A stretch of DNA of 64,000 bases from Candidatus Dojkabacteria bacterium (GTDB lineage: Bacteria; Patescibacteriota; Dojkabacteria; J137). The stretch lies in assembly GCA_025999215.1 (NCBI GenBank), contig AP024679.1, positions 433,082-497,081 of the forward strand, read 5' to 3'. Positions 1-60,468 of the stretch are shown here, piece after piece. Each line of letters starts with the position of its first letter. Positions within the stretch are counted from its first letter, which is position 1. The position numbers and the translations under genes were made by a program. The notes under the pieces were generated by a model. It did not search any database and had not been told where the DNA came from. It was given only the letters and a program-made list of their open reading frames with translations.

Positions 1-1035
1 GGCGTGACAGTTGTTTTGCCTTGGCTTAAGAATTTTATGCGTGATATTGGTGAATCACCATTATTTGCAGCTAAAACGCCATTTAAGCAACCTGGTTTTG
101 TGTATGAAGGCGGTGGTGATTGTAACGAAGATGGTGAATGTTTGGGGTTAAGAAGAAGTTGGTTAATTGTTGATAAAGAATATCAAAGAAGAATCAAGCA
201 AGTGAAGGTACAAGTATGTACTGATCAACCTGATAAACTTGCAAGACCAGTAGATATAGCGCTGGGTTTTGCAGAAGAAAAAGTTTTTACATATTATGTT
301 AGCCCAGTGCCTGAGTGGCAAAATTTTGTTGACTCGTATATGCGCCAGAAGCATTCTGAAAATCCAGCAGAAAATCCTTTGAATGGTGGACCTGAAGAAT
401 ACTGTGATGTAGATAGGTCTGGTGGTTCTGACGATCCAATTTTGAATATTACTGCACCGATTAATGGTGATACCGTTACAAATAGCATAACTATATCTGG
501 CGGTGTTTACTCTGATAATTCAGATATTGTGAGTGTAAAGGTATATTTTGCGAATCAATTACTTGGAACCATCGCTTCAGGTTTTGAAAATTTAAATCAA
601 ACTTATGATATTTCTTCACTAAATTTAGAAAATGGAACATATACTTTTGTTATTGATGCTATAGATGCTAACGGCAATTCTAGTCAATATTCGATTGATT
701 TAGTAAAAGGTTCAGTTACAACATCTAATCTGACTTTTGTTACAGAACCTCCTTCTAGTTTAACTTATGGTGTAACAGTAAATCCAGTAACTCATACAAT
801 TACGGTAAACTATGCTGGAACTAAAACAATTAGTAGTGTGGAACTATATCAAATCAAAAATGGTACTGATATTACTTTGCTAGGAACAATGACAAACGCT
901 GGCTCAGGCAATTACACATATAGTTGGGGTGCTAGTGTACCTAACCAAACTGCAACTTATGAATTTTACGCTATTGTATACGTCAATGGCGGATTCTTGA
1001 AATCTCCTAATAGTAATCAAGTTTCTGTTAACTAA
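1..1035 (+). CDS. C-terminal fragment (5' truncated by the window edge) of a secreted/cell-surface protein. It has Thr/Ser/Asn-rich beta-sandwich (Ig-like) repeats.
   Basis: The ORF is open from the window start. The composition is NGT/TVT-rich and repetitive, typical of bacterial Ig-like surface domains. No catalytic motif was recognised. Confidence 0.45.
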   Translation, partial: GVTVVLPWLKNFMRDIGESPLFAAKTPFKQPGFVYEGGGDCNEDGECLGLRRSWLIVDKEYQRRIKQVKVQVCTDQPDKLARPVDIALGFAEEKVFTYYVSPVPEWQNFVDSYMRQKHSENPAENPLNGGPEEYCDVDRSGGSDDPILNITAPINGDTVTNSITISGGVYSDNSDIVSVKVYFANQLLGTIASGFENLNQTYDISSLNLENGTYTFVIDAIDANGNSSQYSIDLVKGSVTTSNLTFVTEPPSSLTYGVTVNPVTHTITVNYAGTKTISSVELYQIKNGTDITLLGTMTNAGSGNYTYSWGASVPNQTATYEFYAIVYVNGGFLKSPNSNQVSVN

Positions 1036-1165
1036 AGAAATTCACAATAAAGTTAAAAGTTTTAACTTTTAGAAATGTAAATATTTTATCGAATCGCTTT
1101 TTGAAACGTTTATACTTTGGTGATCATTTAACTATTCTACTCTACTGTTTTTATAAAAAACTTCT

Positions 1166-1196
1166 CTAAATTTTAAAAAAAGGTTTAGAGTTTTTA
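1166..1196. terminator. Candidate bidirectional hairpin terminator between the convergent ORF ending at 1035 and rplT.
   Basis: The inverted repeat CTCTAAA(N13)TTTAGAG is flanked by T/A runs on both strands. Confidence 0.3.
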
Positions 1197-1229
1197 TAAA
1201 AAATAAAAAAACTTTTGGGTAATGGAAAA

Positions 1230-1574
1230 TTATTTGGTAACTTCTTTCACAATCTGATCAAAAGTCTCAGGTCTGGAAACTGCCAATTCAGAAAGAACTT
1301 TTCTATCAAGCGCAATATTTTTAGCTTTAAGATTTGCTACAAAATCTTTGTATGCAACACCACGCTGCGAAAGTGCACTTGAAATTGTTTTAATCCATTC
1401 TGATCGAAGTTGTGATTTCCTTCTTCTTCTGTGCGCAAAACTATACTGTCCAGCATGAAGCGTAGCCTCTATTGCTCTTCTGTAAAGTTTACTGTAGGTT
1501 AGTCTATAACCTTTCACTCTTTTTAAAACCTTTTTATGGCTTTTTCTTTTGGAGTGACCTCTTTTAATTCTCAT
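1230..1574 (-). CDS. rplT: 50S ribosomal protein L20.
   Basis: The translation MRIKRGHSKRKSHKK...YRLTYSKLYRRA...AHRRRRK shows the characteristic basic L20 N-terminus and length. It is the last gene of the infC-rpmI-rplT operon. Confidence 0.9.
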   Translation of the reverse strand: MRIKRGHSKRKSHKKVLKRVKGYRLTYSKLYRRAIEATLHAGQYSFAHRRRRKSQLRSEWIKTISSALSQRGVAYKDFVANLKAKNIALDRKVLSELAVSRPETFDQIVKEVTK

Positions 1575-1599
1575 AATCTCTAATTAATAGCTATTCCTT

Positions 1600-1833
1600 T
1601 TAATTTTTCTTTTTAATTCCTAATAATTCTTTCACTCTTTTTTGTTCTGGTTTTGATAATTCTAATTTATCCTTATCAACTCTTCTTTTTGAACTTCTTT
1701 TATTCTTTTTGTGGGCATTATTTTTTAATCTTTGAACTACCCTTGTTACTACTCCAGAACCAGTAACTTTAAATCTTTTGGCTGTAGATTTATGCACTTT
1801 CTTTTTAATTTTAGTTTTTTTAGCTTTACTCAT
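1600..1833 (-). CDS. rpmI: 50S ribosomal protein L35.
   Basis: A short, highly basic protein (MSKAKKTKIKKK...KRFKVTGSG) sits between infC and rplT. Confidence 0.85.
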   Translation of the reverse strand: MSKAKKTKIKKKVHKSTAKRFKVTGSGVVTRVVQRLKNNAHKKNKRSSKRRVDKDKLELSKPEQKRVKELLGIKKKN

Positions 1834-2390
1834 GATTTTTTCTTAACATTAATTACTAAATTATATCCTTCTTTTCGCACTTCCGATATTTCTTCAACCT
1901 TATCTTTCATCATTTCTCTAAGTCTTTCCATTGTAGCATACATTTGCTCTCTTGGCACTCTTCTAGTAGATTTAATTGTTAATTTAGCTGTATTACCTTT
2001 TGATACAAATTCAATAACCCTTTTTAGTTTGTTTTCCATGTCGTTATCTGCAATGTTAGGTTTGAACCACCACTCTTTATTTTTGACTTGGTGACCTTTA
2101 GCATTTTTAGCTTTTTTGGTTTGCTCGTACTTAAATTTTGACCAGTCTATGATTTTAGCTACAGGCGGATCAATATCTGGCGATACAAGAACCAAGTCTA
2201 AACCAACCTCTCTTGCTTTTGCTAAAGCTTCTGCTTTTGAAAGTACACCTAGATTTTCACCATTTTGATCTATTACTCTCATTTTCTCGGCACGAATATG
2301 ATTATTTCTATCGTACCATTTTATTTGAATAGATTTTTTCTTTGGCGATTTTCTAACTCTCCTGATCTTTTTACACTTAAAAATTAACAA
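1830..2390 (-). CDS. infC: Translation initiation factor IF-3.
   Basis: The motifs IRAEKMRVIDQNGENLGV...AREVGLDLVLVSP...VAKIIDWSKFKYE match the IF-3 N- and C-domains. The true start is probably downstream of the annotated ATG (infC commonly uses a non-AUG start). Confidence 0.85.
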   Translation of the reverse strand: MLIFKCKKIRRVRKSPKKKSIQIKWYDRNNHIRAEKMRVIDQNGENLGVLSKAEALAKAREVGLDLVLVSPDIDPPVAKIIDWSKFKYEQTKKAKNAKGHQVKNKEWWFKPNIADNDMENKLKRVIEFVSKGNTAKLTIKSTRRVPREQMYATMERLREMMKDKVEEISEVRKEGYNLVINVKKKS

Positions 2391-2429: not shown

Positions 2430-3980
2430 TTACCCTATTTTTAGGTTTTCACTCAAAAAAGATGTTAAGTTTTCATAATCCATTAATCCAACCTCCCTAC
2501 CTTCAAACCTCACAGAAACTGAATTGTTTGTAACCTCTTTGTTACCAATCACAAGTATGACAGGAATTTTTCTTTCTTCAGCATTTCTGATTTTATTTTG
2601 TATACTTTTAGATCTTAAATCTACTTCCACATTATATCCTTGTTTTGCAATTTTTTTACTAAAATTGCTGGCGAATTCATTTTGTTTAGATTTTATTGGT
2701 ATACAAATAATATGAGTTTCTTTAATTGTAGTTGGTAAATTTCCATTGTTTTCTTCGAGTAAGTAAGCAATGATTCTTAGAGGTACCACTTCAATCTCAG
2801 TTACAAAAAGATTTTTATTTTCATTTTTCTCATCTACATAAGTAGGTGTATTTTGTGTGAAAGTTCTTAAGGATGCCAGTTGCCACTTTCTATCAAAAGA
2901 ATCTAGCACAAAAAATACAGTTTCCACGACACCATTAGTTTTGGTAAGCACTTGGTTGTGAGACACAACATTACTTTTCAAAACACTAGAAATGACTTTA
3001 ACTTTACCATCATCTAAATTATCACTTAAAATGTCGGCAGACACATCAATTAGAAGTTTTTTCCTGAATATATCAACAATTTCTTCTATTTGAATTCCCA
3101 ATTCACTCATTCCTTCCGTATCGGTGAACATCGAAATAATTGTTTGTACTAAAGTTTCAATTTTTTCTTTTTTAATTTCAAAAAAATTGGTTGAGTCGTA
3201 ATTAAAAATTAAAGGAAATTCTTTGTAACCATGATTTTTAGATTTGTAATTTTCGAATAGAATTTTTCTAAATTCGTAATTATTTTTTCCTTGAGGAAAG
3301 AGTGTTTGGTTTAAAATGTTATCTTTCAAGCTTCTCAAAAATAATTTTTTGAGACTCTTTATTGAATTTGCACCAAGAGGTGAAAAGTATATTGAGTTTT
3401 CGTATTCAAAAAATAAATTAGATGATAAGCCTATTGTTTTGTAGTTTTTGTTTTTGACAATTTCTAGCTTTTTTTTATAATCTTGTGCCTCATTAAGATT
3501 TCGAAATACCATTCCATAGACTCTTTGCAATTCTGGTCTGTTAGGATCATCTCTCCAAAAAGATTGCTCTACTTTGTTTACTACAATTATCCCAATTTCT
3601 TCAGTTGATGATACATGCGGTCCTCTGCACAAATCTGTAAATTCTTCTCCTAGTTTGTAAAAGCTTACTTCAGGCTCATCAATTTGTTTAACTAATTCTG
3701 CTTTGTAAATCTGGCCGTTTTGAAGTAAAAAATTCAAAGCGCTATCTTTATCGAGTGTTATTTGTGTAAATTTATGATTTTCTTTAATTATTTCGTTAGC
3801 AACTGCTTCAATATTTTTTAAATCTTCTTCTGTAATTTTTTTATCAATATCGATATCGTAATAAAATCCTTCACTGGTTACTGGTCCTATTCCAAATTTT
3901 ACTTCAGGAAAAACTCTTTTTATTGCTGCCGCCATAACGTGAGCCGCAGAGTGTTTGACTGTATCAGAAATTTTGGTCAT
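2430..3980 (-). CDS. Threonyl-tRNA synthetase homologue. It has an N2/editing-type domain, a divergent class-II core and an anticodon-binding domain. There is no TGS domain, and motif 2 and the Zn ligands appear to be missing.
   Basis: HSAAHVMAAAIKRVFPEVKFGIGPVTSEGFYYDID and LCRGPHV match the ThrRS N2 (tRNA_SAD) HxxxH/CxxxH motifs. The C-terminus IPVILVIGNKEV...VSVRFEGREVG matches the ThrRS anticodon-binding domain. The middle 230 aa align to the catalytic core but lack the KPMNCPGH/FGSCHRNE/H511 signatures. The gene occupies the conserved position upstream of infC. Confidence 0.6.
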   Translation of the reverse strand: MTKISDTVKHSAAHVMAAAIKRVFPEVKFGIGPVTSEGFYYDIDIDKKITEEDLKNIEAVANEIIKENHKFTQITLDKDSALNFLLQNGQIYKAELVKQIDEPEVSFYKLGEEFTDLCRGPHVSSTEEIGIIVVNKVEQSFWRDDPNRPELQRVYGMVFRNLNEAQDYKKKLEIVKNKNYKTIGLSSNLFFEYENSIYFSPLGANSIKSLKKLFLRSLKDNILNQTLFPQGKNNYEFRKILFENYKSKNHGYKEFPLIFNYDSTNFFEIKKEKIETLVQTIISMFTDTEGMSELGIQIEEIVDIFRKKLLIDVSADILSDNLDDGKVKVISSVLKSNVVSHNQVLTKTNGVVETVFFVLDSFDRKWQLASLRTFTQNTPTYVDEKNENKNLFVTEIEVVPLRIIAYLLEENNGNLPTTIKETHIICIPIKSKQNEFASNFSKKIAKQGYNVEVDLRSKSIQNKIRNAEERKIPVILVIGNKEVTNNSVSVRFEGREVGLMDYENLTSFLSENLKIG

Positions 3981-4022
3981 AACATTTTCTCTATCTTAGA
4001 GAAATATAAAATTTAATACACA

Positions 4023-4096
4023 TGAGCACTACAGGATTCGAACCTGTGACCTTTCCCACGTCAAGGGAACGCTCTAACCAGCTGAGCTAAGTGCTC
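4023..4096 (-). tRNA. tRNA-Val (anticodon GAC). No encoded CCA.
   Basis: It folds as a cloverleaf: acceptor GAGCACT/AGTGCTC, D arm GCTC/GAGC, anticodon stem TTCCC/GGGAA with loop TTGACGT, and T arm ACAGG-TTCGAAT-CCTGT. Confidence 0.85.
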
Positions 4097-4689
4097 TTTT
4101 GCACCTTCTTTTTTTCTATTACGCTGTCGATAATTCCATATTCTACTGCCTGTAGAGCTGTCATGTGATAGTCTCTGTCAATATCTTTTAATACTTTTTC
4201 TTTCTTCTGCCCAGTTGATTCCACTAACATATCTACCAATTTATCTTTGAGCCTTAAAATTTCTTTAGCTGTAATTTCAATGTCTGATGCTTGACCTTCA
4301 ACTCCTCCTAGTGGTTGATGAATTAAAATCAAACTGTTTGGCAAAGCAAACCTTTTGCCTTTTGTGCCTTGAGACAAAATCATAGCTCCCATTGAAGCAG
4401 CTTTACCTACCGCAATGGTAACAATATCAGGTTTTATATAATTCATTGTGTCAATTATTGAAAGACCGTCATATACAGAACCTCCAGGACTATTGATGTA
4501 CATGGTTATATCTTTTTTAGGATCTTCTTTTTCTAAAAAGAGAAGTTGAGCAATCACTGCATTTGCAACCCCCTCATCAATCGCCGTGCCCAAAAAAATT
4601 ATTCTATCTTTGAGTAGTCTAGAATAAAGATCATAAGCTCTTTCTCCATCTCTGGTTCTTTCAATTACGTTTGGTATTAAATATGCCAT
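4087..4689 (-). CDS. clpP: ATP-dependent Clp protease proteolytic subunit.
   Basis: The sequence [23 protein letters not shown]...[19 protein letters not shown]...GKAASMGA carries the ClpP Ser-His-Asp context. The 3' end overlaps the tRNA-Val 5' end by about 10 nt. Confidence 0.9.
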
Positions 4690-4767
4690 TTATTTTTTTT
4701 AATAACTACTTAATCATTATAGTAGTAATTATTTTAATTTTCAACAGAACCGATTAGCTTATCAGGT

Positions 4768-4808
4768 AAAAAACAAAAATCCCCGTTGGGATTTTTGTTT
4801 TTTACCTC
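4768..4808. terminator. Bidirectional intrinsic terminator: a perfect 19 bp palindrome with internal U-tracts.
   Basis: The sequence is GGTAAAAAACAAAAATCCC-CGTT-GGGATTTTTGTTTTTTACC. It lies at the 3' end of the murA-murB-mutL-DUF192 operon and upstream of clpP. Confidence 0.5.
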
Positions 4809-4926
4809 GTTTGTTGGAATATTATACACATTTTCAAATTTGTTTGTCAAAGGGGTTTATACAAAGTGTTTTAATTTCTTTATGTTAAAGCTTAAAAGCA
4901 CTTGAAATTTTGTATACAATTTTTAA

Positions 4927-5463
4927 TCACCATATAAATCTATCACCTATTTTAATTCCATTCTTTTCTGTCCAAAAAGCATTTACTTCAAGTGTGTATT
5001 TTGCCGGTTTTTCTGATGAGTAAATTTCTGTAGTTTGGTTTGGCATGGTGTTAGTGTGAATTTTAACAACTTTTTTATCTGCATCTAAAAATATAATATC
5101 TAGTGGAATATAAGTATTTTTCATCCAAAAGTTTAGAGTTTGTTCTTTTTCAAACACAAAAAGCATGCCAGCATCTTCAGGTAGATAATCTCTAAACATC
5201 AAACCTCGCTGCCTTTCTGTGTTATCATCAGCTATTTCTACAAAAATTTTTTTACCGTTCGGTGCGATTATTTCAATATTTTCTGAAGGTATTGCGTTTA
5301 ATTGAATGTCTTGATTTGCTTCGTTGTTATTTAAAAAGTTTTCACCTACACCTAACGCGATTAAAACAGCAAAAAAAACAGAAATTACTGTAGCAATAGC
5401 GCTAATTAAAAGTATAATCGGAGATTTGAGGTTTTGTAAAATTTTGTTTTTAATATTATTCAT
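4927..5463 (-). CDS. DUF192 (COG1430) family protein with an N-terminal membrane anchor.
   Basis: The GLMFR...GMLFVF...FWMKNTYIPLDIIFLD pattern is typical of DUF192. Confidence 0.65.
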   Translation of the reverse strand: MNNIKNKILQNLKSPIILLISAIATVISVFFAVLIALGVGENFLNNNEANQDIQLNAIPSENIEIIAPNGKKIFVEIADDNTERQRGLMFRDYLPEDAGMLFVFEKEQTLNFWMKNTYIPLDIIFLDADKKVVKIHTNTMPNQTTEIYSSEKPAKYTLEVNAFWTEKNGIKIGDRFIW

Positions 5464-7301
5464 TAAATTATTCGTTTAAAAAATTTATCTATATCTTCTT
5501 TCGTTAGTTTGTAGTAAGTTGGTCGTCCATGTGGGCAATTTTTGGGGTATTTAAGGCTAAACAAATCGTTAATGAGCTTATTCATTTCGTCTATAGATAA
5601 TTTTTGTCCAGCTCTAATTGATCCGTGGCATGCTGTTTTTGCCCAAACTACATACTGTTCTTGTGTTAATTTTACACTAGTTTCAAACTCGTAACTACTA
5701 AATTTTGAATCAAGATCATCTGATTCTTCGTTTATTATCTCATCAAAGAATTCGTTTAAATTTATATTTTCTAAGTCTTCAGGGATTTCCATAATTTGTA
5801 AGGATTTTTGTCCAAATCTTTCAAATTTAAATCCTATCTGAATTAAATCATTTTCAATCTTTTTAATATTATCTTTACCGCTAGTAGTTAACTCGACAAT
5901 TGCGGGAATTAATAGAGGTTTTGATTTAGGTTTTTGAATTTTTCGTAGCAATTTTTCAAAAATGATTTTTTCGTGAGCTGCATGCTGATCAACTATAATT
6001 AAGTTTGAATTTTGTTCAAACAGTATGTATGTTCCAAAAATTTGCATAGGGTTTTTGTTCCATGAAAAGGAAATCTCAACTTCATTTTTGCTACTATTAA
6101 TTCCTTCATCTGATAATAATTGCTGAGTAAATTCAAGTGCTTTTTTGACTTCATAATTTTTGTTTCTTTGGCTTCCGATATTAAATTTAATTTTATTACT
6201 CTGCTCTGTTTTTTGTAAGGGTAAGTAATGCCTTGGTGGATTAGTAGTTTTTAAATCTGGTTCATTTGAAAAGTTATTTTCTTCTCCTAAAAAATCTTTG
6301 AGTAATTCTTGCTTGGACTCTTTCTCAAGTGTTTTTTTGACGCTCAGAAAAACAGACTTGAAAATGGAACCTGGATCATCAAAACGAACTTCAAGCTTTC
6401 GTGGGTGCACATTAACATCAACTTGATTTGAATCAAGTGTTAAAAACAAAATATATTGTGGCTTTAAATCTTTATGCAAGAAACCTGAGTATGCTTTTTG
6501 GATTGCTGATGAAATAGTTTTGTTAGTTACAAATCTTTTGTTGATAAAAATATATTGAACTGGATTTGTTTTTTTTCCAAGTTTTGAATTACCCAAAAAA
6601 CCATTTAATTTGATTGAATTACTGTGAGCAGTTAAGTTATATGAGTTTTCTAAAAATTCTCTACCTAAAATATCTTTTATTCTGTTCTCAATTGAAGTTT
6701 TTTCTAGATTATAAAGTTGTTTATTATTGTGGTAAAGCTCAAAATGTATTTCAGGATTTGCAAGAGATGCATGAATGAAAACTTGGATAATGTGTCTAAG
6801 TTCAGTTTGATTAGATTTTAGAAATTTTTTTCTTGCAGGAACTGTAGCAAATAAATTAAAAACTTGAATTCTTGTGCCGTTATTGTAACCTTCTGGAGAA
6901 GCTTCTGAGATGGTTGTTGGGGTTACCACCACCGCTTTTGGGTTACTATCGGGTGTTTTAGATTGTAAAATAATCTTTTCAGCAACTGAACGAATGCTAG
7001 CCATTGCTTCACCTCTAAAACCAAATGAATTAATTTTAAGTAGGTCAGAAGATTTTTTAATTTTAGAAGTTGCGTGTTGTTCAAACACTAAATCAATATC
7101 ATCACTCTCTATTCCTATTCCATCATCAATAATTTCAATCAAATCTAGCCCATAGTTTTCAATATAAACTTTAATATGAGTTGCATTGGCATCAATGCTA
7201 TTTTCTAAAATTTCCTTAACTACGGACGCTGGTCTTTCAACAACTTCACCGGCAGCAATAAGGTTTATTACATGTGGAGGTAGTTTGTTAATTTTTCCCA
7301 T
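5463..7301 (-). CDS. mutL: DNA mismatch repair protein MutL.
   Basis: The N-terminal GHKL ATPase motifs IAAGEVVERPASVVKEILENSIDA and GTRIQVFNLF are present, with a C-terminal dimerisation domain. The length is 612 aa. Confidence 0.9.
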   Translation of the reverse strand: MGKINKLPPHVINLIAAGEVVERPASVVKEILENSIDANATHIKVYIENYGLDLIEIIDDGIGIESDDIDLVFEQHATSKIKKSSDLLKINSFGFRGEAMASIRSVAEKIILQSKTPDSNPKAVVVTPTTISEASPEGYNNGTRIQVFNLFATVPARKKFLKSNQTELRHIIQVFIHASLANPEIHFELYHNNKQLYNLEKTSIENRIKDILGREFLENSYNLTAHSNSIKLNGFLGNSKLGKKTNPVQYIFINKRFVTNKTISSAIQKAYSGFLHKDLKPQYILFLTLDSNQVDVNVHPRKLEVRFDDPGSIFKSVFLSVKKTLEKESKQELLKDFLGEENNFSNEPDLKTTNPPRHYLPLQKTEQSNKIKFNIGSQRNKNYEVKKALEFTQQLLSDEGINSSKNEVEISFSWNKNPMQIFGTYILFEQNSNLIIVDQHAAHEKIIFEKLLRKIQKPKSKPLLIPAIVELTTSGKDNIKKIENDLIQIGFKFERFGQKSLQIMEIPEDLENINLNEFFDEIINEESDDLDSKFSSYEFETSVKLTQEQYVVWAKTACHGSIRAGQKLSIDEMNKLINDLFSLKYPKNCPHGRPTYYKLTKEDIDKFFKRII

Positions 7302-10088: not shown

Positions 10089-12113
10089 TTAATCAGGAAC
10101 TTTTTGTAGTAAAAATTCTCTACAGTAAATCCTGGGTGGTTTAGACCAATCTATTTCACCATCAGGTTTGCGCTCATGTAAAATAAAACATCCATATCCA
10201 TATTGCCTTAACCCTATTCTACTGATCACGATCACATTATTTTTTAATTTTAATAGTTCTTTAACATATTTGTGATGCTTACGGGTTGCGTACATATTTT
10301 CATATATTCCATACTTTATACCAAAGTTACATGTGTACACACTAACATGTTTGCCATCCTCACATGCTTTGACATTTAGAATGGGTTCAACTGGTACATA
10401 CTTGAATCCTGCCCTTTTCCAATTATCTACTGCTTGATATACTCTTAACCAAGAAATAAATTCTTCATTTGATATGACTCTTCTATTACTTTTGTTGTCT
10501 AGCTCTTCAGTAATAATTGGGGGCTTTTTCTCTGCTTTTGATATTTCTTTTATTTCTGATTTTTCAAGGTTTTCTATTAGTTTTAATACATCTTTTTCGA
10601 TTGGTTTTCTATTTTTTTCTGGCAGATACTCAAAATTCCAAGCAAACCCAGGCGCAGCTTCTTTTGGTGCCATATCAATAAGTAGTCTAGCTACCTGTAA
10701 TTGATTCCCTTCATGTAAAGATGGGAGTCTAAAAGCGACCTCGTAAGCGGTTCCTTTTGGGTTTACACCCATAAGTAACTTAATGACTGCTAATTGATTT
10801 TTTTCTGACAAGTCCCGAAGTTGCCAAGCCACATTGCGAAGAAATTCGTCATTAATTGCTTTGGGAGCTTTTTCTATAAGTGAAGTAATAATTTCTATTT
10901 GAGTATCTTCTGGTAAACATGCTAAATGGCCAGCGAGGTTCTCAGCAGACTCTTGAGGTGCTTTTTCAACAAGTAGTTTAGCAATATCTCCCCTAATATC
11001 TTCAGATATATCATCAATTTTGTCAGATAACGGGCCTGCCGTTGGATTTATATATTCATCCTTATGTAACATGTACAAAATTTCATTTTTGATTTCTTGG
11101 GGTAATTCTTCAAATTCGCAAATTTCCCGAGCAAGTTCAGGTGCCGCTTCTTTTGGTGCTATATCGAGCAGTAAATTAAAGATATGTATCATTTGCTTTT
11201 CAGAAATAAACTCGCCGACATAAAAAAGTTTTTTAGCAAGTTCAGGTGCAGCTTCTTTTGGTGCTTTCTCTAGAATTAATTTTAATATTTCCATTTGAGC
11301 TTTTTCTGGTAAATATATGGCCTGATTTGCAAGCCCTGGTGCAGCTTCTTTAGGAGCTTTTTCTATAAGCTTTTTTGCGAAGTCTGCTCTAACTTCTTCT
11401 GGAAGGTCATTAATACCCCAGGCAAGTTTAGGTGCAGCTTCTTTTGGTGCTATATCGAGAAGCTTGTTTGCAAAGTCTACTCTTGTTTCTTTTGGAAGAT
11501 AAGAAACACTCCAGGCAATTTCAGGTACCGCTTTTTTGAGGGCTACATCAAACAGTAAATTAACAATTTGTTTTCTATTTTCGTATGGAAAAGATTCTAT
11601 GGAGCTAGCGATTACTGGAGCCGCTTCTTTGGGGGCATTCTCTAGGAACCAAGGTAATGCTTCTCTTTTAACCTCTGATGGGAGGTACTTAAAATTTTCA
11701 TATTCAGCTATTGCAGAAGTCACTTTTTTTAAATTTTTCTCCTTTATATGTTTTAAGAGCATTTTACAGATTTTTGTAAAAACTGCTGGTTCAAGAAGGC
11801 GATACAAATCTGAAATAAAGTTAGCAAGTTTAACCCCAGCTTCCTCTGGAGCGATATCTAAAATCTCTTGGGTTTTTTCGAAATAATCTCCTTGTTGACT
11901 ACATAGTGATAACATCGCATCAGTTATTTTAAAGTTTATTGGATCATTTTCGATAATGTTCTGGTATTGCCTTTCTAAATTTTCAACTATTTTTTGAAAC
12001 TCATCCTGGGACCATTTAGGTGCACCTGGCAAATGATACATTTCATAGTTTGCTATCATGTTGCGTGCCGTTTCACTTAAACTTGAATTAATTGAGGAAG
12101 TATTTTGTGACAT
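10089..12113 (-). CDS. Repeat protein of 674 aa. It has about ten roughly 30-aa 'L(L)DIAPKEAAPxLA...LPEE' HEAT-like repeats and a roughly 140-aa C-terminal domain of unknown function.
   Basis: The long ORF is intact. The nucleotide-level periodic repeat (gcagcttcttttggtgc recurring about every 90-100 bp) translates to APKEAAP. The C-terminal region ...YGCFILHERKPDGEIDWSKPP... has no recognised motif. Confidence 0.65.
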   Translation of the reverse strand: MSQNTSSINSSLSETARNMIANYEMYHLPGAPKWSQDEFQKIVENLERQYQNIIENDPINFKITDAMLSLCSQQGDYFEKTQEILDIAPEEAGVKLANFISDLYRLLEPAVFTKICKMLLKHIKEKNLKKVTSAIAEYENFKYLPSEVKREALPWFLENAPKEAAPVIASSIESFPYENRKQIVNLLFDVALKKAVPEIAWSVSYLPKETRVDFANKLLDIAPKEAAPKLAWGINDLPEEVRADFAKKLIEKAPKEAAPGLANQAIYLPEKAQMEILKLILEKAPKEAAPELAKKLFYVGEFISEKQMIHIFNLLLDIAPKEAAPELAREICEFEELPQEIKNEILYMLHKDEYINPTAGPLSDKIDDISEDIRGDIAKLLVEKAPQESAENLAGHLACLPEDTQIEIITSLIEKAPKAINDEFLRNVAWQLRDLSEKNQLAVIKLLMGVNPKGTAYEVAFRLPSLHEGNQLQVARLLIDMAPKEAAPGFAWNFEYLPEKNRKPIEKDVLKLIENLEKSEIKEISKAEKKPPIITEELDNKSNRRVISNEEFISWLRVYQAVDNWKRAGFKYVPVEPILNVKACEDGKHVSVYTCNFGIKYGIYENMYATRKHHKYVKELLKLKNNVIVISRIGLRQYGYGCFILHERKPDGEIDWSKPPRIYCREFLLQKVPD

Positions 12114-22096: not shown

Positions 22097-24664
22097 ATGA
22101 TACTACAAAAAATTTTTTTTACAATGAAATATTTAAAGTTAACAAAAAAAATATTCACTACAGTTTTGGTTTTTGGCATTTTTGGATTGGTTTTGCCTTC
22201 TATTTGGAGTGTAAATGCTATAGTAGATGTGCCTTTAGAGACTTACTCGAATACGCAGACAGAGGTAATTAAACCTACACCATCAATGAATGGTTTGTTT
22301 TGTTTTGTTCCTGCTGAAGTTAATCAAGCACTCTATGGATGTCCTATAGTTACAAGTTGTGGTTTCTTTAGTGATTTAATGTCTGTTGGTGAGACTGTTC
22401 TTTCTGGTACTACCTTTTTTAACACAGCATGTGATGCAACTAATGGAGATTCACAATTTAATCCTAATTCAGGAATTGGTTTAAATCACGTGGCATTAAA
22501 TGGTATTGATACTTTGTTAAACTTAAGACCTGTAAGTGGTGTAGATTATATTAACCAGAATGTTTATGCATTATCAAAGTTGGGTAACGTGAGCGCACAA
22601 GATGGTGGTAGGGTGCTTCCATATTATCCTGGACTTGGTTATCAGTTACAGGCACCAATGCAAGCTTTTTGGGGCTGGTCCGTTAATATAGTTTATGGTT
22701 TTTTGATAGTTTTGATAATTGTTGTAGCACTTGCAATAAGTTTCAGGCAAAGATTAGGCGGTAGCGCTGTTGTTACTTTACAAAATTCTATCCCAAATAT
22801 TGCTCTTGCTATGATTTTAGTACCACTCAGTTTTGCAATTACTGGTTTGTTTATTGATGCTATAACTGTCGGTTCGAATGTTGTTCATGGTTTTCTATTG
22901 GGACCTGGATCACCAGGTAGGGTTGTTATAGAAGGCGATGAAAACGATCGGCCCTTTAGTAGGGATCTATATCCAGATGATCCTGATTTACAGTTGTTAC
23001 AAGGAAGTATTGGAAACCCATTGGAATTATCTATTGAGGGTGGTACGGTTGGAGATGCTGCTTTTGATATTATTATTGGAGATAAAGGCACCACGAGGGA
23101 TGCAATTGATAAAGGTTTGTTAATTTTTTCTCCACTTTTTCCATTTGCAGCTATAACTATACTACTACAAGGTATATCTCAAATTCCAGTTGTTGGTGAA
23201 AGAACTACTTCTAGTATTTCTGAGTTGTTTGGTTTTGGCAGTGAGATTCCGCAGTTTGCAGCTTCGTGGTGGATAGGCCAATTTTTCACTTTATTTATGA
23301 ATATAATATTCTTTTTCACAGGTTTACGAATTTTATGGTTATTATTAAAAAAGTTTTTTGTTTTGATGATATCGCCTGTATTTTCTCCTTTTGTGTTTGC
23401 AACTATAGCAATTCCTGGAGTAGGTATGAAAAATGTTTATTCTTTTTTGAAATCACTAGGTGCTGTTTCAATATTTTATATTGTTGCTTATTCTATGATT
23501 TTGTTGGCAAATATTATTGGTAATATAAAATTTGTACAAAGCATAGAGCAACAATTTCAAGTTTCAGGTTATGTACCTCCATTACTAGGATTTAGTGGCA
23601 AATTTATTGAATTATCGGAAAAAATAATTAGTAGTGAAGGTACTGAAACTGGAGTCAATGCTTTAGTTTACTTGGTTATGTCTAGTGTTGCGGTTGTCAT
23701 CTATTTATCTATTCCAAAAACTCTAAGAGATATTGATAGAAGATTGGGAACAGATAGATCTATGTTAATGCCTATTTTGCAAGATACTATTCAGAGCGCA
23801 AGAGATTCTCTTGGAATTGGTAGAGAGTTAGGGTTATATGGTGCCAACTTAGCTGCGAGCGCCTACAATAGGTTTGCAGGTGTGGAAGCAGGGCAACCTG
23901 GAAGTGCGCAATACAGGTTTAGAAGATTTTTTTCTAACTCTTTGAATAGGTTAGATTCTCAATCAAATGATCCAAATAGGAGTTTTTTGGGTAGAGTTGC
24001 ATCTAGGTATGATAGGTTTGTAACAGGTCAAGTTGCTAGAGCTTTAGGTGTAACACCGCAAGGTTTTGATGAGCAAGGAAGGAGGTTGCCTGCTTCATTT
24101 AAGGTTCAATTTGTTCCAACTAAGTATGTAAATGAGTTTGGAATTATAACTTTTCCAAACTCATTCATTCAAGAAATATGTCAAGCAGCTACAGATGTTG
24201 GATCTAATAAATGGTCAATTGAGGGTTTTGTGATAATGAAGATAACTGCTGAAAATGCTGAGTTACCTTTTACATTTGATACAAATTCTGTTAGTATTCA
24301 AGAAGCAGTTAAAGCACCTGATGGTGCAACAGACATACCATCAGGTAAAACGGATACTCAAAGGTTGTATAAAGAGAAAGTAGATATATTTGGTGTGAGT
24401 AAAGCAACTAAAGGGGCTTTGTCCATTCAGCTGTCACCTAGATCTGCTCCTATGCCAACTGATGGTAAATCTGCAGGTATATTGTTTGATTTGGTTATAA
24501 ACGATGTAAGGAAATTGTTTGGATGGGATGGTCAAAAAATTGTAAAAGGGGACGCTATTATTTCAACTGTTTCCTCTGTCGTTATGTCGGACAAGATTTT
24601 CTTTGTTTTTAGGGATGGTGCTGCAGGACCAGTAAGGTTGCAATTGGGCGCAACACCTGATTAA
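22097..24664 (+). CDS. Large polytopic membrane protein of 855 aa. It has a signal peptide, an extracytoplasmic domain and 8 or more TM helices, and tentatively resembles TrbL/VirB6-like channel proteins.
   Basis: The call rests on topology only. Hydrophobic helices are clustered between residues about 190-270 and 340-520, with a long hydrophilic C-terminal domain. No sequence-search support. Confidence 0.4.
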   Translation: MILQKIFFTMKYLKLTKKIFTTVLVFGIFGLVLPSIWSVNAIVDVPLETYSNTQTEVIKPTPSMNGLFCFVPAEVNQALYGCPIVTSCGFFSDLMSVGETVLSGTTFFNTACDATNGDSQFNPNSGIGLNHVALNGIDTLLNLRPVSGVDYINQNVYALSKLGNVSAQDGGRVLPYYPGLGYQLQAPMQAFWGWSVNIVYGFLIVLIIVVALAISFRQRLGGSAVVTLQNSIPNIALAMILVPLSFAITGLFIDAITVGSNVVHGFLLGPGSPGRVVIEGDENDRPFSRDLYPDDPDLQLLQGSIGNPLELSIEGGTVGDAAFDIIIGDKGTTRDAIDKGLLIFSPLFPFAAITILLQGISQIPVVGERTTSSISELFGFGSEIPQFAASWWIGQFFTLFMNIIFFFTGLRILWLLLKKFFVLMISPVFSPFVFATIAIPGVGMKNVYSFLKSLGAVSIFYIVAYSMILLANIIGNIKFVQSIEQQFQVSGYVPPLLGFSGKFIELSEKIISSEGTETGVNALVYLVMSSVAVVIYLSIPKTLRDIDRRLGTDRSMLMPILQDTIQSARDSLGIGRELGLYGANLAASAYNRFAGVEAGQPGSAQYRFRRFFSNSLNRLDSQSNDPNRSFLGRVASRYDRFVTGQVARALGVTPQGFDEQGRRLPASFKVQFVPTKYVNEFGIITFPNSFIQEICQAATDVGSNKWSIEGFVIMKITAENAELPFTFDTNSVSIQEAVKAPDGATDIPSGKTDTQRLYKEKVDIFGVSKATKGALSIQLSPRSAPMPTDGKSAGILFDLVINDVRKLFGWDGQKIVKGDAIISTVSSVVMSDKIFFVFRDGAAGPVRLQLGATPD

Positions 24665-33498: not shown

Positions 33499-35232
33499 AT
33501 GAAATTTATAAAATTTGCACAACTTCTACAATCGCTAGAAAAAACTAAAAGCAGGAATGATATGACTAGTCTTCTGGCTGAATTTTTAGATGGTATAACG
33601 GAACAAGAGTTTGTTGTGGTTTACCTTATTCAAGGAAGATTGAAACCTAAGTTTGTAGATTTAGAATTTAATTTATCTCAAAAATTGATTCTCAAAGCTC
33701 TAGAAAATTTAGGTGATTCTAATATGCTTTTTAAAGATTTGGGAGATTGTGGTTTGGTGGCCGAAAAGCTTTGTAGTGATGCAAGTGATGATTTAGAAAT
33801 TGTTGAGGTTTATGAAAAACTTATTGAAATTGCAAACTTGAAGGGAGCGGGATCTCAAGATTCTAAAATTGAAATGTATCTTGAATTGATTAAGAATGTA
33901 AAACCTCTGAGTGCAAAATACATTACAAGAGTAATTGTGGGTAATTTGAGATTGGGTTTGAGTGATAAAACTATTTTAGATTCAATTTCTTGGCTTAAAA
34001 AAGGTGATAAGTCATTAAGATCAATTTTAGATAGAGCTTACGGCATAAGGTCAGATATTGGAGAAATTACTAAAATTACCTTATTCAATAAAGATTTTGA
34101 AAATATTCTAAACTCAATTTCACTAAAGCCTCTAACACCTGTAGCTTCAAAACTCGTTGAAAGAGCAAAAGATACAAAAGAAGTTTGGGAGCGTATGCCA
34201 AATTGTTTTGTGCAGCCCAAATTAGACGGATTAAGAGGACAAATTCACTATGATGGGAATGAAAATGTTGAAATATTTAGTAGAAATATGGAAAGGTTAA
34301 CTTTGCAATTTCCTGAAATTGTTGAGGAAATAAAACAAAATTTTAATAATTCCTTTATCTTGGATTCTGAAATAATAGGTTGGGATGAAGAAAATAAAAC
34401 TTTTTTACCCTTTCAAGAAACAATTAAACGAAAAAGGAAATATGATATTCAAAACCACCTCAAATCGATTCCTATAAAGGCAATGTGTTTTGATGTTTTG
34501 TATTTTGATGGAACTGATCTTACCCAAAAGCCACTAAATGAAAGGATAAATATTTTGTTCAAAAATTTTGGAAGTAAGAGTAGGTTTTTGGAAATTTTAG
34601 AAACAAAGCAGATAGCATCACTTGATGAACTAACCACGTATTTTGAAGAAAAAGTGTATAGTGGTTTGGAGGGAATTATCACAAAACAATTTGATTCATT
34701 TTATGAACCAGGGACAAGAAATTTTAGCTGGATAAAACTCAAAGCAAACACTGTGTCAAGTTTAGTAGACACGATTGATGTTGTGGTTTTAGGTTATTAC
34801 TACGGAAAGGGAGCTCGAGCAAAGTTTGGTGTAGGGACCTTGTTGGCAGGAGTTTATGACCCTGATAAAAATGAATATTATTCTTTAGGGAAAGTTGGTA
34901 GTGGTTTTACTGACGAAGATTTGAAAAAAATAAAATTTGATTTATGTCAAATTCAGATTTCGGAAAAACCAGATAATTTTATAGTTGATAAAAATATATA
35001 TCCGGACGTTTGGGTTGAACCTAAAATTATAATGGAAATTGTTGCTGATGAAATTACAAGGAGTAATGTACATACAGCAGGCAAAGGTTTTCGGACAAAA
35101 GTAAAAAACGATGATTTTCAAAAAGGTCTATCAATCCGATTTCCAAGGATGAAAATTTGGAATCGCCAAGATAAAGACATTCCTACAACTGTGACTGAAC
35201 TTGTCCGAATGTACGAATTAAGAAAAGGTTAG
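33499..35232 (+). CDS. ATP-dependent DNA ligase.
   Basis: It has the adenylation motif I QPKLDGLRGQIH (KxDG), an N-terminal DNA-binding domain and OB-fold spacing. The length is 577 aa. Confidence 0.8.
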   Translation: MKFIKFAQLLQSLEKTKSRNDMTSLLAEFLDGITEQEFVVVYLIQGRLKPKFVDLEFNLSQKLILKALENLGDSNMLFKDLGDCGLVAEKLCSDASDDLEIVEVYEKLIEIANLKGAGSQDSKIEMYLELIKNVKPLSAKYITRVIVGNLRLGLSDKTILDSISWLKKGDKSLRSILDRAYGIRSDIGEITKITLFNKDFENILNSISLKPLTPVASKLVERAKDTKEVWERMPNCFVQPKLDGLRGQIHYDGNENVEIFSRNMERLTLQFPEIVEEIKQNFNNSFILDSEIIGWDEENKTFLPFQETIKRKRKYDIQNHLKSIPIKAMCFDVLYFDGTDLTQKPLNERINILFKNFGSKSRFLEILETKQIASLDELTTYFEEKVYSGLEGIITKQFDSFYEPGTRNFSWIKLKANTVSSLVDTIDVVVLGYYYGKGARAKFGVGTLLAGVYDPDKNEYYSLGKVGSGFTDEDLKKIKFDLCQIQISEKPDNFIVDKNIYPDVWVEPKIIMEIVADEITRSNVHTAGKGFRTKVKNDDFQKGLSIRFPRMKIWNRQDKDIPTTVTELVRMYELRKG

Positions 35233-59037: not shown

Positions 59038-60468
59038 ATGAAAAAATCTTTAATAATTTTGCTGACAATTTTTTTTGTGTGTTGCTGTTTACTAATTTTA
59101 GGATTTATTGTTATTTTTACATTAAGCTCTGAAAGATTTAATCTAAAAGGAAAATATCAAGCAGAAACTCCTCATGAAGGAATAGAAATGTTTTTGGCAG
59201 ATACTCTAATTACTTTTGTTGATAATTTAGATTTTAGTAGTGAGCAAAATCTTGCACGTTCTTTATCAGACAGCAATGCTTTAGGTAATTCCGTAGTAGA
59301 AGTTTTTGAAAAAACAAAATTTTTGCAATATCCAGAATTTTCTAAAGAAAATAATTCAATTGAAGCTGTTTTAAATTTTTCAGTAATAAATTCTGATGTA
59401 AATGCTAAATTTGATTCTAATTGGATTGTTGAATACGGAGATGAAAAGTTTAATAGAGATAGTTTAAAAGGAAAATTATCAAAAACTGAAGTTGAAAAGA
59501 TAATTAGAAGTTTTCCGAAACTTCAGGTGACTGGAAATTTAGAAAGTACTGAACTGGATGGAGAAATTGATTTTGACGCAAGATTTATGGAAGGAAAACT
59601 TTATGTTAGTTTCGGAGATCAAGCTTTAGAAGTCTTGGAAGTTCCAAGTGATATATTTTCAAATAATTTTGTTAAACTTAATTTAAATGAAACTATTGTA
59701 AACTCTACCCTTCAAAATCAAGAAGATTTTTTGACAGAAGAACAAATTGATTTTTTTACTGATGATGAAGATATAACAAAGTTATATCAAAATGAAGCTA
59801 AAATAAAGAAAAATTTAAGAAAAATTTTGAGAAATGGAAAAATTTTTAGTGATGTTGAAGAAATTGATTCTAAGTTATTTCCTTTGGCAGTTAATTGCTA
59901 CAACGGTCAAGTGGATACAACAGAAATGAGACAAAGTTTTGAAAAGTATGGATTAGAGTTAGTAACTCTTCTTACTCCTGATTTAGAAGATCCTATTGAA
60001 GCTTTTAACCAAACTTTGGACTCTTTAATTGATGCAGAGAAGTTTTTTGATGAAAATGAAACTTTTATAAATTACTGTGTTGATAAGAATAAAAACTTTT
60101 CTGGTTTGGAAGTTACCATTGAAGCAAGTAATTTTGAATTTAAATTAAATTATTTCTTAAAAGATTTAAATTCTAGTAAAAAAATTACTAAACCGCAAGA
60201 TTATTTTGATATTACAGATTTGGTTTTATCTTCTGATGGCACAGTTAACTTAGGTACTCTATTTAGTGGCAATTTATACAACTTAGAGAATAATCATGAC
60301 GAACTTACACCTAAGAAAAGTGATGAATTTATTTATAACTCAAACATTGATTGGGATAAGTATTTAAAAGACGTTGATGAAATAATCAAAGAGTTTGAAA
60401 ACGGAAATATTGACTATGAAGAGTATTTGAAAAGATTTGATGAGCTAAATTTGAAGTATGGTGTTTGA
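59038..60468 (+). CDS. Hypothetical N-anchored extracytoplasmic protein (476 aa).
   Basis: It has a signal-anchor LIILLTIFFVCCCLLILGFIVIF. No motif was recognised. Confidence 0.45.
   Translation: MKKSLIILLTIFFVCCCLLILGFIVIFTLSSERFNLKGKYQAETPHEGIEMFLADTLITFVDNLDFSSEQNLARSLSDSNALGNSVVEVFEKTKFLQYPEFSKENNSIEAVLNFSVINSDVNAKFDSNWIVEYGDEKFNRDSLKGKLSKTEVEKIIRSFPKLQVTGNLESTELDGEIDFDARFMEGKLYVSFGDQALEVLEVPSDIFSNNFVKLNLNETIVNSTLQNQEDFLTEEQIDFFTDDEDITKLYQNEAKIKKNLRKILRNGKIFSDVEEIDSKLFPLAVNCYNGQVDTTEMRQSFEKYGLELVTLLTPDLEDPIEAFNQTLDSLIDAEKFFDENETFINYCVDKNKNFSGLEVTIEASNFEFKLNYFLKDLNSSKKITKPQDYFDITDLVLSSDGTVNLGTLFSGNLYNLENNHDELTPKKSDEFIYNSNIDWDKYLKDVDEIIKEFENGNIDYEEYLKRFDELNLKYGV

Follow-up and report, generated by a model that had tools for sequence, protein, structure and literature searches.

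A thrS ortholog of Candidatus Dojkabacteria that has probably lost aminoacylation and persists as an editing-only protein

Introduction

Descendants of threonyl-tRNA synthetase (ThrRS) that edit without aminoacylating are known from the Crenarchaeota, where the editing fold is unrelated to the bacterial one, and the only bacterial case is a reversible, zinc-dependent state of a cyanobacterial enzyme. In Aeropyrum pernix, ThrRS-2 joins an editing domain to an anticodon-binding domain and removes Ser from tRNA-Thr in trans (PMC4491819), and Anabaena apo-T1 is a bacterial N2-type ThrRS that lacks synthetic activity and acts purely as a trans-editing factor (PMC4787780). Here we analyze a gene at the thrS position of a Candidatus Dojkabacteria genome (2430..3980, minus strand, of a 64,000-nucleotide stretch, hereafter the window, that covers positions 433,082 to 497,081 of contig AP024679.1 in GenBank assembly GCA_025999215.1). 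We propose, with a probability of about two in three, that this gene is the positional ortholog of thrS, that it has permanently lost the capacity for aminoacylation and that its product persists as an editing-only ThrRS that would deacylate Ser-tRNA-Thr.

The window protein resembles the crenarchaeal ThrRS-ed/ThrRS-2 proteins of Sulfolobus and Aeropyrum in being derived from ThrRS, in apparently not aminoacylating and in combining an editing domain with an anticodon-binding domain (PMC4491819, PMC4787780). In both cases an old thrS would have been reduced to a proofreader that clears Ser-tRNA-Thr in trans. It differs from them in that their N-terminal editing domain is of the DTD-like archaeal type whereas its own has the bacterial N2 fold, and in that it keeps a full-size folded core remnant and has a bacterial host belonging to the candidate phyla radiation (CPR). 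The Ser-tRNA(Thr) hydrolase model NF011500 matched only residues 403-493, in the anticodon-binding domain, and its score of 38.4 bits, far below the cutoff of 362, places the protein outside that family. For crenarchaeal ThrRS-ed a catalytic partner, ThrRS-cat, is known in archaea.

The window protein can also be likened to Anabaena apo-T1, which edits the Ser-tRNA-Thr made by a catalytic paralog that itself edits poorly, perhaps as part of a heterodimer (PMC4787780). T1, however, is a complete enzyme that becomes reversibly inactive when zinc is scarce, whereas the loss in the window protein appears to be genetic, lineage-wide and, because zinc ligands and motifs have been deleted, irreversible; the complete zinc-dependent site of the T1/T2 zinc-switch type is missing from it, and its inactivity would be constitutive. 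AlaX proteins (AlaXp-S/M/L) share the fold and the HxxxH/CxxxH residues of its N2 domain and act in trans (PMC12003907). They differ in having neither an anticodon-binding domain nor a synthetase core and in acting on tRNA-Ala; the NCBIfam model AlaXM matched residues 10-139 of the window protein weakly. HisZ and other pseudo-synthetases are class-IIa paralogs in which a degenerate core serves a role other than aminoacylation. The likeness to HisZ, which does not edit and regulates a metabolic enzyme as one of its subunits, is confined to this reuse of a dead core.

When the literature was searched for ThrRS or threonyl-tRNA together with Dojkabacteria, CPR or Patescibacteria, the sole result was a paper about TyrRS and TrpRS of archaeal type in these bacteria, and no description of the window protein turned up; the TyrRS of Dojkabacteria has already been replaced by an archaeal type (PMC5370408). 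If our proposal is correct, the gene would encode a genetically fixed bacterial editing-only ThrRS, built on the N2 fold and located at the ancestral thrS locus, and its relatives, ranging from near-canonical through point-mutated to deleted forms, would constitute a natural record of a synthetase turned stand-alone proofreader. A reduced genome of ~0.86 Mb would then keep a 516-aa protein whose sole conserved chemistry is proofreading, which would point to strong selection against Ser-for-Thr mistranslation. Because the gene carries the label 'threonine--tRNA ligase', genome surveys that count aminoacyl-tRNA synthetases would wrongly score it as ThrRS activity, and it raises the question of which enzyme charges tRNA-Thr in these organisms.

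A ThrRS-derived protein with a degenerate core

The gene is an intact open reading frame (ORF) of 516 aa. NCBI lists the same protein sequence under the title 'MAG: threonine--tRNA ligase [Candidatus Dojkabacteria bacterium]', encoded by a contig of 862,240 bp. A first-pass annotation, made by eye, had proposed that the product aligns with ThrRS from the N2 domain onward, that it retains the editing and anticodon-binding domains and that it lacks a TGS domain, and profile searches supported all of these points. Pfam recognized tRNA_SAD (PF07973) at residues 105-155 (E 1e-10) and HGTP_anticodon (PF03129) at residues 426-511 (E 6e-16); neither TGS nor the class-II core family PF00587 gave a match even at E ≤ 1. 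The start codon lies 42 nt after a tRNA-Val gene, which leaves no room for a TGS domain. When solved structures were searched with phmmer, S. aureus and E. coli ThrRS were matched in their N2 domain by residues 6-192 (E 8e-27 to the ThrRS N2 structure 1tje) and in their anticodon domain by residues 380-495; in the PDB search, residues 71-255 and 502-620 of the S. aureus enzyme were matched and its core was not. The ThrRS equivalog model TIGR00418 scored 210.1 bits against a cutoff of 383.65, with its match also confined to the two ends.

The same architecture recurs in relatives. A profile search over 1.84 billion representatives identified about 34 representatives (50% identity) of 499-527 aa, hereafter the compact family, and the architecture is kept in about 60 clusters at 90% identity, so many that it is not a product of chance. 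A profile–profile alignment of this family with canonical ThrRS, calculated with hhalign, covered the full length of the protein (probability 100%, E 9e-105), indicating descent from a complete ThrRS. On the minus strand of the window, the N2 (AlaX-like) editing domain comprises residues 1-160 (3501..3980), followed by a poorly conserved linker helix leading to the core (residues 161-190, 3411..3500; DSSP helices 162-177 and 180-186; identity 0.25), a degenerate remnant of the class-II core (residues 191-398, 2787..3410) whose beta-sheet fold is kept in the structural model described below, and a remnant of the motif 3 helix together with the anticodon-binding domain (residues 399-516, 2433..2786).

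To map the core residue by residue, we used E. coli ThrRS (L085) as the reference and aligned with MAFFT, with hmmalign to a canonical profile and with hhalign, tallying residues over 60 compact-family members. Residues 180-402 align to E. coli residues 244-520, making the core 54 aa shorter, close to the ~60 aa that had been estimated by eye, and the absences that the first-pass annotation had listed (the zinc-binding Cys segment, the motif 2 loop and the second His ligand) were confirmed, together with the loss of the other His ligand, by MAFFT, by the E. coli residue mapping and by the profile–profile alignment. The KPMNCPxH segment, which contains zinc ligand C334, is deleted in 60/60 members, and the remaining ligands of the C334/H385/H511 triad are replaced, H385 by K, R, I or V and H511 by E, S, T or Q. 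No motif 2 loop remains, and S, L, E, F or D (F in the window protein) stands in place of the motif 2 arginine R363; R520 of motif 3 is retained in only 5/60 members and G516 is deleted. Neither D383, Y462, K465, Q479 and Q484 nor, in column tallies and the hhalign alignment, the FYGPK and HRAxxGSxERF sequences are conserved, and motif 1 (GY...P), the classic class-II dimer interface, is unconserved as well. The profile–profile alignment could have recovered motifs 1-3 and the zinc ligands had the suspected degeneracy been an artifact of reading by eye; it recovered no catalytic motif, with motif 2, motif 3 and the zinc ligands all missing. Thus the protein shares with canonical ThrRSs its descent and its thrS-infC-rpmI-rplT position but not the curated score, the motif arginines or the zinc triad, and its class-II core appears to be a folded but catalytically dead remnant.

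The distribution of sequence conservation differs accordingly between the compact family and active enzymes. Identity within the compact family is 0.55 in N2 and 0.23 in the core, as compared with 0.49 and 0.46, respectively, in canonical ThrRS, and the core/N2 ratio is 0.41 in the compact family versus 1.04 in canonical CPR enzymes, making the core remnant, with its relaxed constraint, the fastest-evolving part of the protein. Between the window and the related locus L081, ClpP is 71% identical, L20 61% and MurA 51%, whereas the thrS product is only 32% identical, a low value that we attribute to the dead core. The conservation of N2 and the anticodon domain alongside a drifting core suggests that function resides in those two domains, and the pattern is that expected of a functional protein, neither a pseudogene nor a divergent active synthetase.

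This pattern bears directly on the possibility, left open by the first-pass annotation, that the core is simply highly divergent and that the protein is the sole and still active ThrRS of its host, with a radically altered minimal core. The gene does occupy the only thrS position seen, no other ThrRS lies in the 64-kb window, and NCBI and IMG label genes of the family 'threonine--tRNA ligase'. However, no conserved residue able to bind ATP, zinc or threonine remains, deletions have removed the zinc-Cys segment and the motif 2 loop, and a working active site could not be free to drift to 23% identity and to evolve faster than any other part of a protein that is otherwise conserved (55% in N2). 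We therefore regard a sole, active synthetase as extremely improbable.

Conservation of the editing site and the anticodon-binding domain

In contrast to the core, the editing site is untouched by substitution. The HxxxH motif (H10/H14, equivalent to E. coli H73/H77; 3939..3953, minus strand), K93 (E. coli K156) and the D-L-C-R-G-P-H motif (D116/C118/H122, equivalent to E. coli D180/C182/H186; 3615..3635, minus strand) are invariant in 60/60 members, and the strings KHSAAHVMAAA, EGFYYDIDI and DLCRGPHVSS in the ORF contain the HSAAH, GFYYD and LCRGPHV segments that had been picked out as retained. The FxDLCRGPH motif is universal, being matched by at least 80 ordinary thrS loci from unrelated phyla. 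Roles for H77, K156, D180 and H186 in the editing site were reportedly described by Dock-Bregeon et al. Those of H73 and C182 in the editing of Ser-tRNA-Thr are documented (PMC12003907). With its HxxxH, CxxxH, K156 and D180 equivalents in place, the domain can be assigned to the N2/AlaX type, and hydrolysis of Ser-tRNA-Thr is its predicted activity.

Four further N2 positions, V34, G89, E95 and S106, are invariant in the family and not in canonical ThrRS. Such positions could reflect a retuned specificity, in which case the protein would be a deacylase for another substrate, such as a non-protein hydroxy amino acid or Ala or Gly on tRNA-Thr, and AlaX-fold domains do act on several substrates (PMC12003907). 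All known Ser-tRNA-Thr editing residues are unchanged, however, which makes an unchanged substrate the simplest expectation, and we give a different substrate only a slim chance.

The anticodon-binding domain is retained in a similarly specific way. Residues G479, E482 and R491 are the counterparts of E. coli G597, E600 and R609 and do not vary in any of the 60 members, and we take E600 and R609 to be the residues that contact G35 of tRNA-Thr in the 1qf6 complex. Together with the PF03129 match, E482 and R491 support the assignment of a class IIa anticodon-binding domain that would be specific for tRNA-Thr. These residues and the editing hexad (H10, H14, K93, D116, C118 and H122) stay invariant although overall identity in the family falls to about 30%.

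An AlphaFold2 model of the protein was confident throughout (predicted local distance difference test score, pLDDT, 93.4; predicted template-modeling score, pTM, 0.82), and the top Foldseek match for the whole chain was the E. coli ThrRS–tRNA complex 1qf6 (template-modeling score, TM, 0.79; E 6.5e-43). The predicted structure thus agrees with the suspicion raised by eye: the ThrRS fold is kept and the residues of the active site are gone. In the model, the class-II sheet appears to be retained as a scaffold.

Graded decay of the core among relatives

Below the compact family in our search lay a tier of proteins of 549-594 aa that still scored above ordinary ThrRSs, in which the editing hexad is intact and 0 to 7 of 10 catalytic residues are left; two of them, MBD3280496.1 and MBD3363066.1, are named Candidatus Dojkabacteria at NCBI. 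Ordered by their PF00587 scores, the relatives within Candidatus Dojkabacteria form a series of 133, 114, 102, 88, 44, 37, 35, 24 and 17 bits, ending with no match in the compact family. Along this series the count of catalytic residues drops from 7/10 to 0/10, whereas all 6/6 editing residues persist and the scores of the editing and anticodon domains stay flat. The synteny with infC-rpmI-rplT is kept in all related loci examined, and at five of them, whose proteins are 32-70% identical, the gene order is murA, (murB), mutL, DUF192, clpP, tRNA-Val, thrS, infC, rpmI, rplT and a penicillin-binding protein gene. Because the locus is the same throughout the lineage, the window gene is the original thrS rather than a paralog from elsewhere, and by its sequence it would represent the terminal, deleted stage of a graded, class-wide decay at one locus.

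The best-preserved group, which we call clade A (P0144 and P0270-P0283) and to which MBD3280496.1 belongs, occupies the same locus (L095 10001-11806, P0276). It keeps R363, E365, H385, Y462, K465, H511 and R520, with all of the ATP-binding and motif 2 and 3 residues in place, but a Thr replaces zinc ligand Cys334 (LRPMATPSH) in 13/13 members, and the D383 position is variable. Its core is constrained, with a core/N2 ratio of 0.88 as compared with 0.36-0.41 in the decayed grades. Clade A would represent a ThrRS that is still active but has a non-canonical amino-acid site, or else it would mark the onset of decay. A bait search for a paralog that used the core and anticodon domain of P0144 recovered clade A, which is a positional ortholog.

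The search for a catalytic partner

Thr-tRNA-Thr is not known to be made by any indirect pathway, and organisms that carry the compact form are therefore expected to encode another ThrRS. When six canonical ThrRSs were compared with the 64-kb window by tBLASTn, the window gene was the only match, and the largest ORFs of the window included no synthetase. In the related loci examined, the 10 kb on either side of the gene contained no PF00587 gene other than those of the pheS or alaS type. No tRNA-Thr gene was present in any locus fetched.

Several candidates from the wider searches were set aside. P0065 and P0112, canonical enzymes with the highest N2 identity, might have been second copies, but they come from ordinary thrS-infC-rplT loci of other organisms. 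P0221, P0248, P0170, P0181 and P0214 combine intact catalysis with damaged editing residues, and none of them carries a Dojkabacteria name. P0290 (L093 10001-11242, 413 aa) and P0341 (L094 1524-2753, 409 aa, 41% GC) are genuine ThrRSs without N2, and both begin shortly ahead of DHRxxG, where the catalytic domain is entered; the former lies on a contig of a TACK archaeon (TackOD1, MoeA) and is of the crenarchaeal ThrRS-cat type. A scan of metagenome DNA for the KPMNCP motif in AT-rich codons, of which we took the best 80 of at least 120 loci, contributed L114, whose seeming lack of N2 was an assembly-gap artifact, and L145, whose enzyme is 67% identical to one from Uhrbacteria.

L145 is of interest in its own right. 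It encodes a parcubacterial ThrRS (329-1945, minus strand) in which the catalytic site is intact and N2 is gutted, with neither HxxxH nor CRGPH, next to a Fur/Zur-like regulator and a His-rich zinc-uptake operon of the znuABC type (2629-5669), an arrangement that resembles that of the zinc-regulated, editing-defective T2 paralog of cyanobacteria. Mirror-image enzymes with intact catalysis and absent or dead editing therefore exist elsewhere, as P0290 and L145 illustrate, although neither belongs to Dojkabacteria.

A more radical possibility is that Dojkabacteria with the compact relic have no conventional ThrRS at all and make Thr-tRNA-Thr by an unrecognized enzyme or route, with the relic as its dedicated proofreader; in a milder version, the class would have passed through a ThrRS without the zinc Cys but with a constrained core, such as that of clade A with its C334T replacement, that recognized threonine in a non-canonical manner. 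We consider this a long shot.

Models for the function of the protein

A reader of the tRNA-Thr anticodon, a ThrRS-shaped scaffold and a conserved hydrolytic site, found together in one chain, suggest an editing-only ThrRS. In the mechanism that we favor, the anticodon-binding domain would recognize tRNA-Thr through E482 and R491, the dead class-II core would serve as a rigid spacer and probable dimerization scaffold, and N2 would hydrolyze Ser on tRNA-Thr using H10, H14, K93, D116, C118 and H122. The substrate, Ser-tRNA-Thr, would be released by a separately encoded catalytic ThrRS without effective editing, and the working form might be either a free homodimer, as for crenarchaeal ThrRS-ed, or the non-catalytic subunit of a heterodimer, as for Anabaena apo-T1:T2. 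We infer the deacylase activity, its Ser-tRNA-Thr substrate and both the existence and the nature of the partner enzyme from these features; of the mechanisms considered, trans-editing is the best supported.

The heterodimer version can be put more strongly, as a refinement in which the protein works only as the non-catalytic half of a ThrRS heterodimer: it would pair through its core remnant with a catalytic, editing-poor protomer and supply editing and perhaps tRNA binding. Anabaena apo-T1 pairs with the editing-defective T2 and edits on its behalf (PMC4787780), and the confident class-II fold predicted for the dead core would suit an interface. The compact family has, in addition, gained a conserved, surface-type patch, I-S-x-x-L-x-x-x-x-(I/V)-S-H-N-(K/Q), at residues 330-343 (2952..2993, minus strand; E. 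coli 441-454), which neither the intermediates nor clade A nor canonical ThrRS share (S331 is conserved in 33/37 members, S340 in 36/37 and H341 in 31/37). This ISHNK patch may be a docking surface. The motif 1 dimer interface is unconserved in the family, however, and neither the window and the flanks of related loci nor our search lists contained an identifiable partner, and we consider obligate heterodimerization unlikely.

Four observations weigh against trans-editing by an editing-only ThrRS as we have outlined it. No catalytic partner ThrRS was found, a weak negative given that it covers 64 kb of an 862-kb contig, the related flanks and the homology matches listed. The motif 2 loop, which contacts the acceptor stem in E. 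coli ThrRS, is gone, and tRNA docking may therefore differ from the canonical mode. A core that acted purely as a spacer would not account for the conservation of the ISHNK patch within it. Finally, clade A has a constrained core without the zinc Cys; because C334 is replaced there and the ATP-binding residues are nonetheless intact, the route from active enzyme to relic may have included an intermediate function.

The thrS locus and other features of the window

The window, whose GC content is 32%, carries the genes expected downstream of thrS directly after the gene and on the same minus strand: infC (1830-2390; Pfam IF3_N/IF3_C), rpmI (1600-1833; L35p) and rplT (1230-1574; L20), together occupying 1230..2390. 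The ORF at 2430-3980 and the Pfam assignments of these neighbors bear out the canonical thrS position that had been recognized by eye. Upstream lie a tRNA-Val(GAC) gene (4023..4096, minus strand; ARAGORN and Rfam), the source of the 42-nt gap before the start codon, and immediately beyond it clpP (4087..4689, minus strand; Pfam). A scan for terminators found none between clpP and the thrS gene. The intergenic region between DUF192 and clpP contains a perfect palindromic hairpin of 20 bp (4764-4807) and, in a promoter scan, a TTGACA-18-TATAAT promoter with a 12/12 match (4850-4821, minus strand), which likely form a terminator/promoter pair bounding an operon of clpP, tRNA-Val, thrS and infC.

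This embedding in a translation-factor operon would suit a regulator, namely a tRNA-Thr sensor or a translational repressor of infC-rpmI-rplT or of a genuine thrS, acting through tRNA or an mRNA mimic. E. coli ThrRS represses its own mRNA through a mimic of the anticodon arm, and the anticodon-recognition residues are retained in the window protein. A pure binder, however, would not need six hydrolytic editing residues that are invariant in 60/60 members; Rfam detected no T-box, thrS leader, L20 leader or other known RNA element around the gene, and the upstream gap amounts to just those 42 nt after the tRNA gene. A regulatory role is therefore quite improbable, and an editing-only ThrRS remains the reading that we prefer.

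A tRNA-Val(GAC) gene separates clpP from thrS at each Dojkabacteria locus of the compact family that we examined, with 14-75 nt between it and the thrS start (in relatives, L081 9876-9951, L084 9888-9963, L086 9855-9928, L088 9902-9976 and L089 9915-9987). Such tight linkage may have a function, such as co-transcription. A tRNA-Val(TAC)/tRNA-Phe(GAA) pair and tRNA-Ser(TGA) are also syntenic near thrS.

Elsewhere in the window, three large ORFs had no Pfam match at E ≤ 1e-4 (10089-12113, minus strand, 674 aa; 22097-24664, plus strand, 855 aa; and 59038-60468, plus strand, 476 aa). Near the locus in two relatives, AlaRS is short (L084 1-848 and L095 746-2623; 625-637 aa), with PF01411 and tRNA_SAD only, and apparently without the C-terminal domain of typical bacterial AlaRS. 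The window also encodes an ATP-dependent DNA ligase (33499-35232, plus strand; PF04675, PF01068 and PF04679), which is of the type found in archaea and eukaryotes; the enzyme usual in bacteria is the NAD-dependent LigA.

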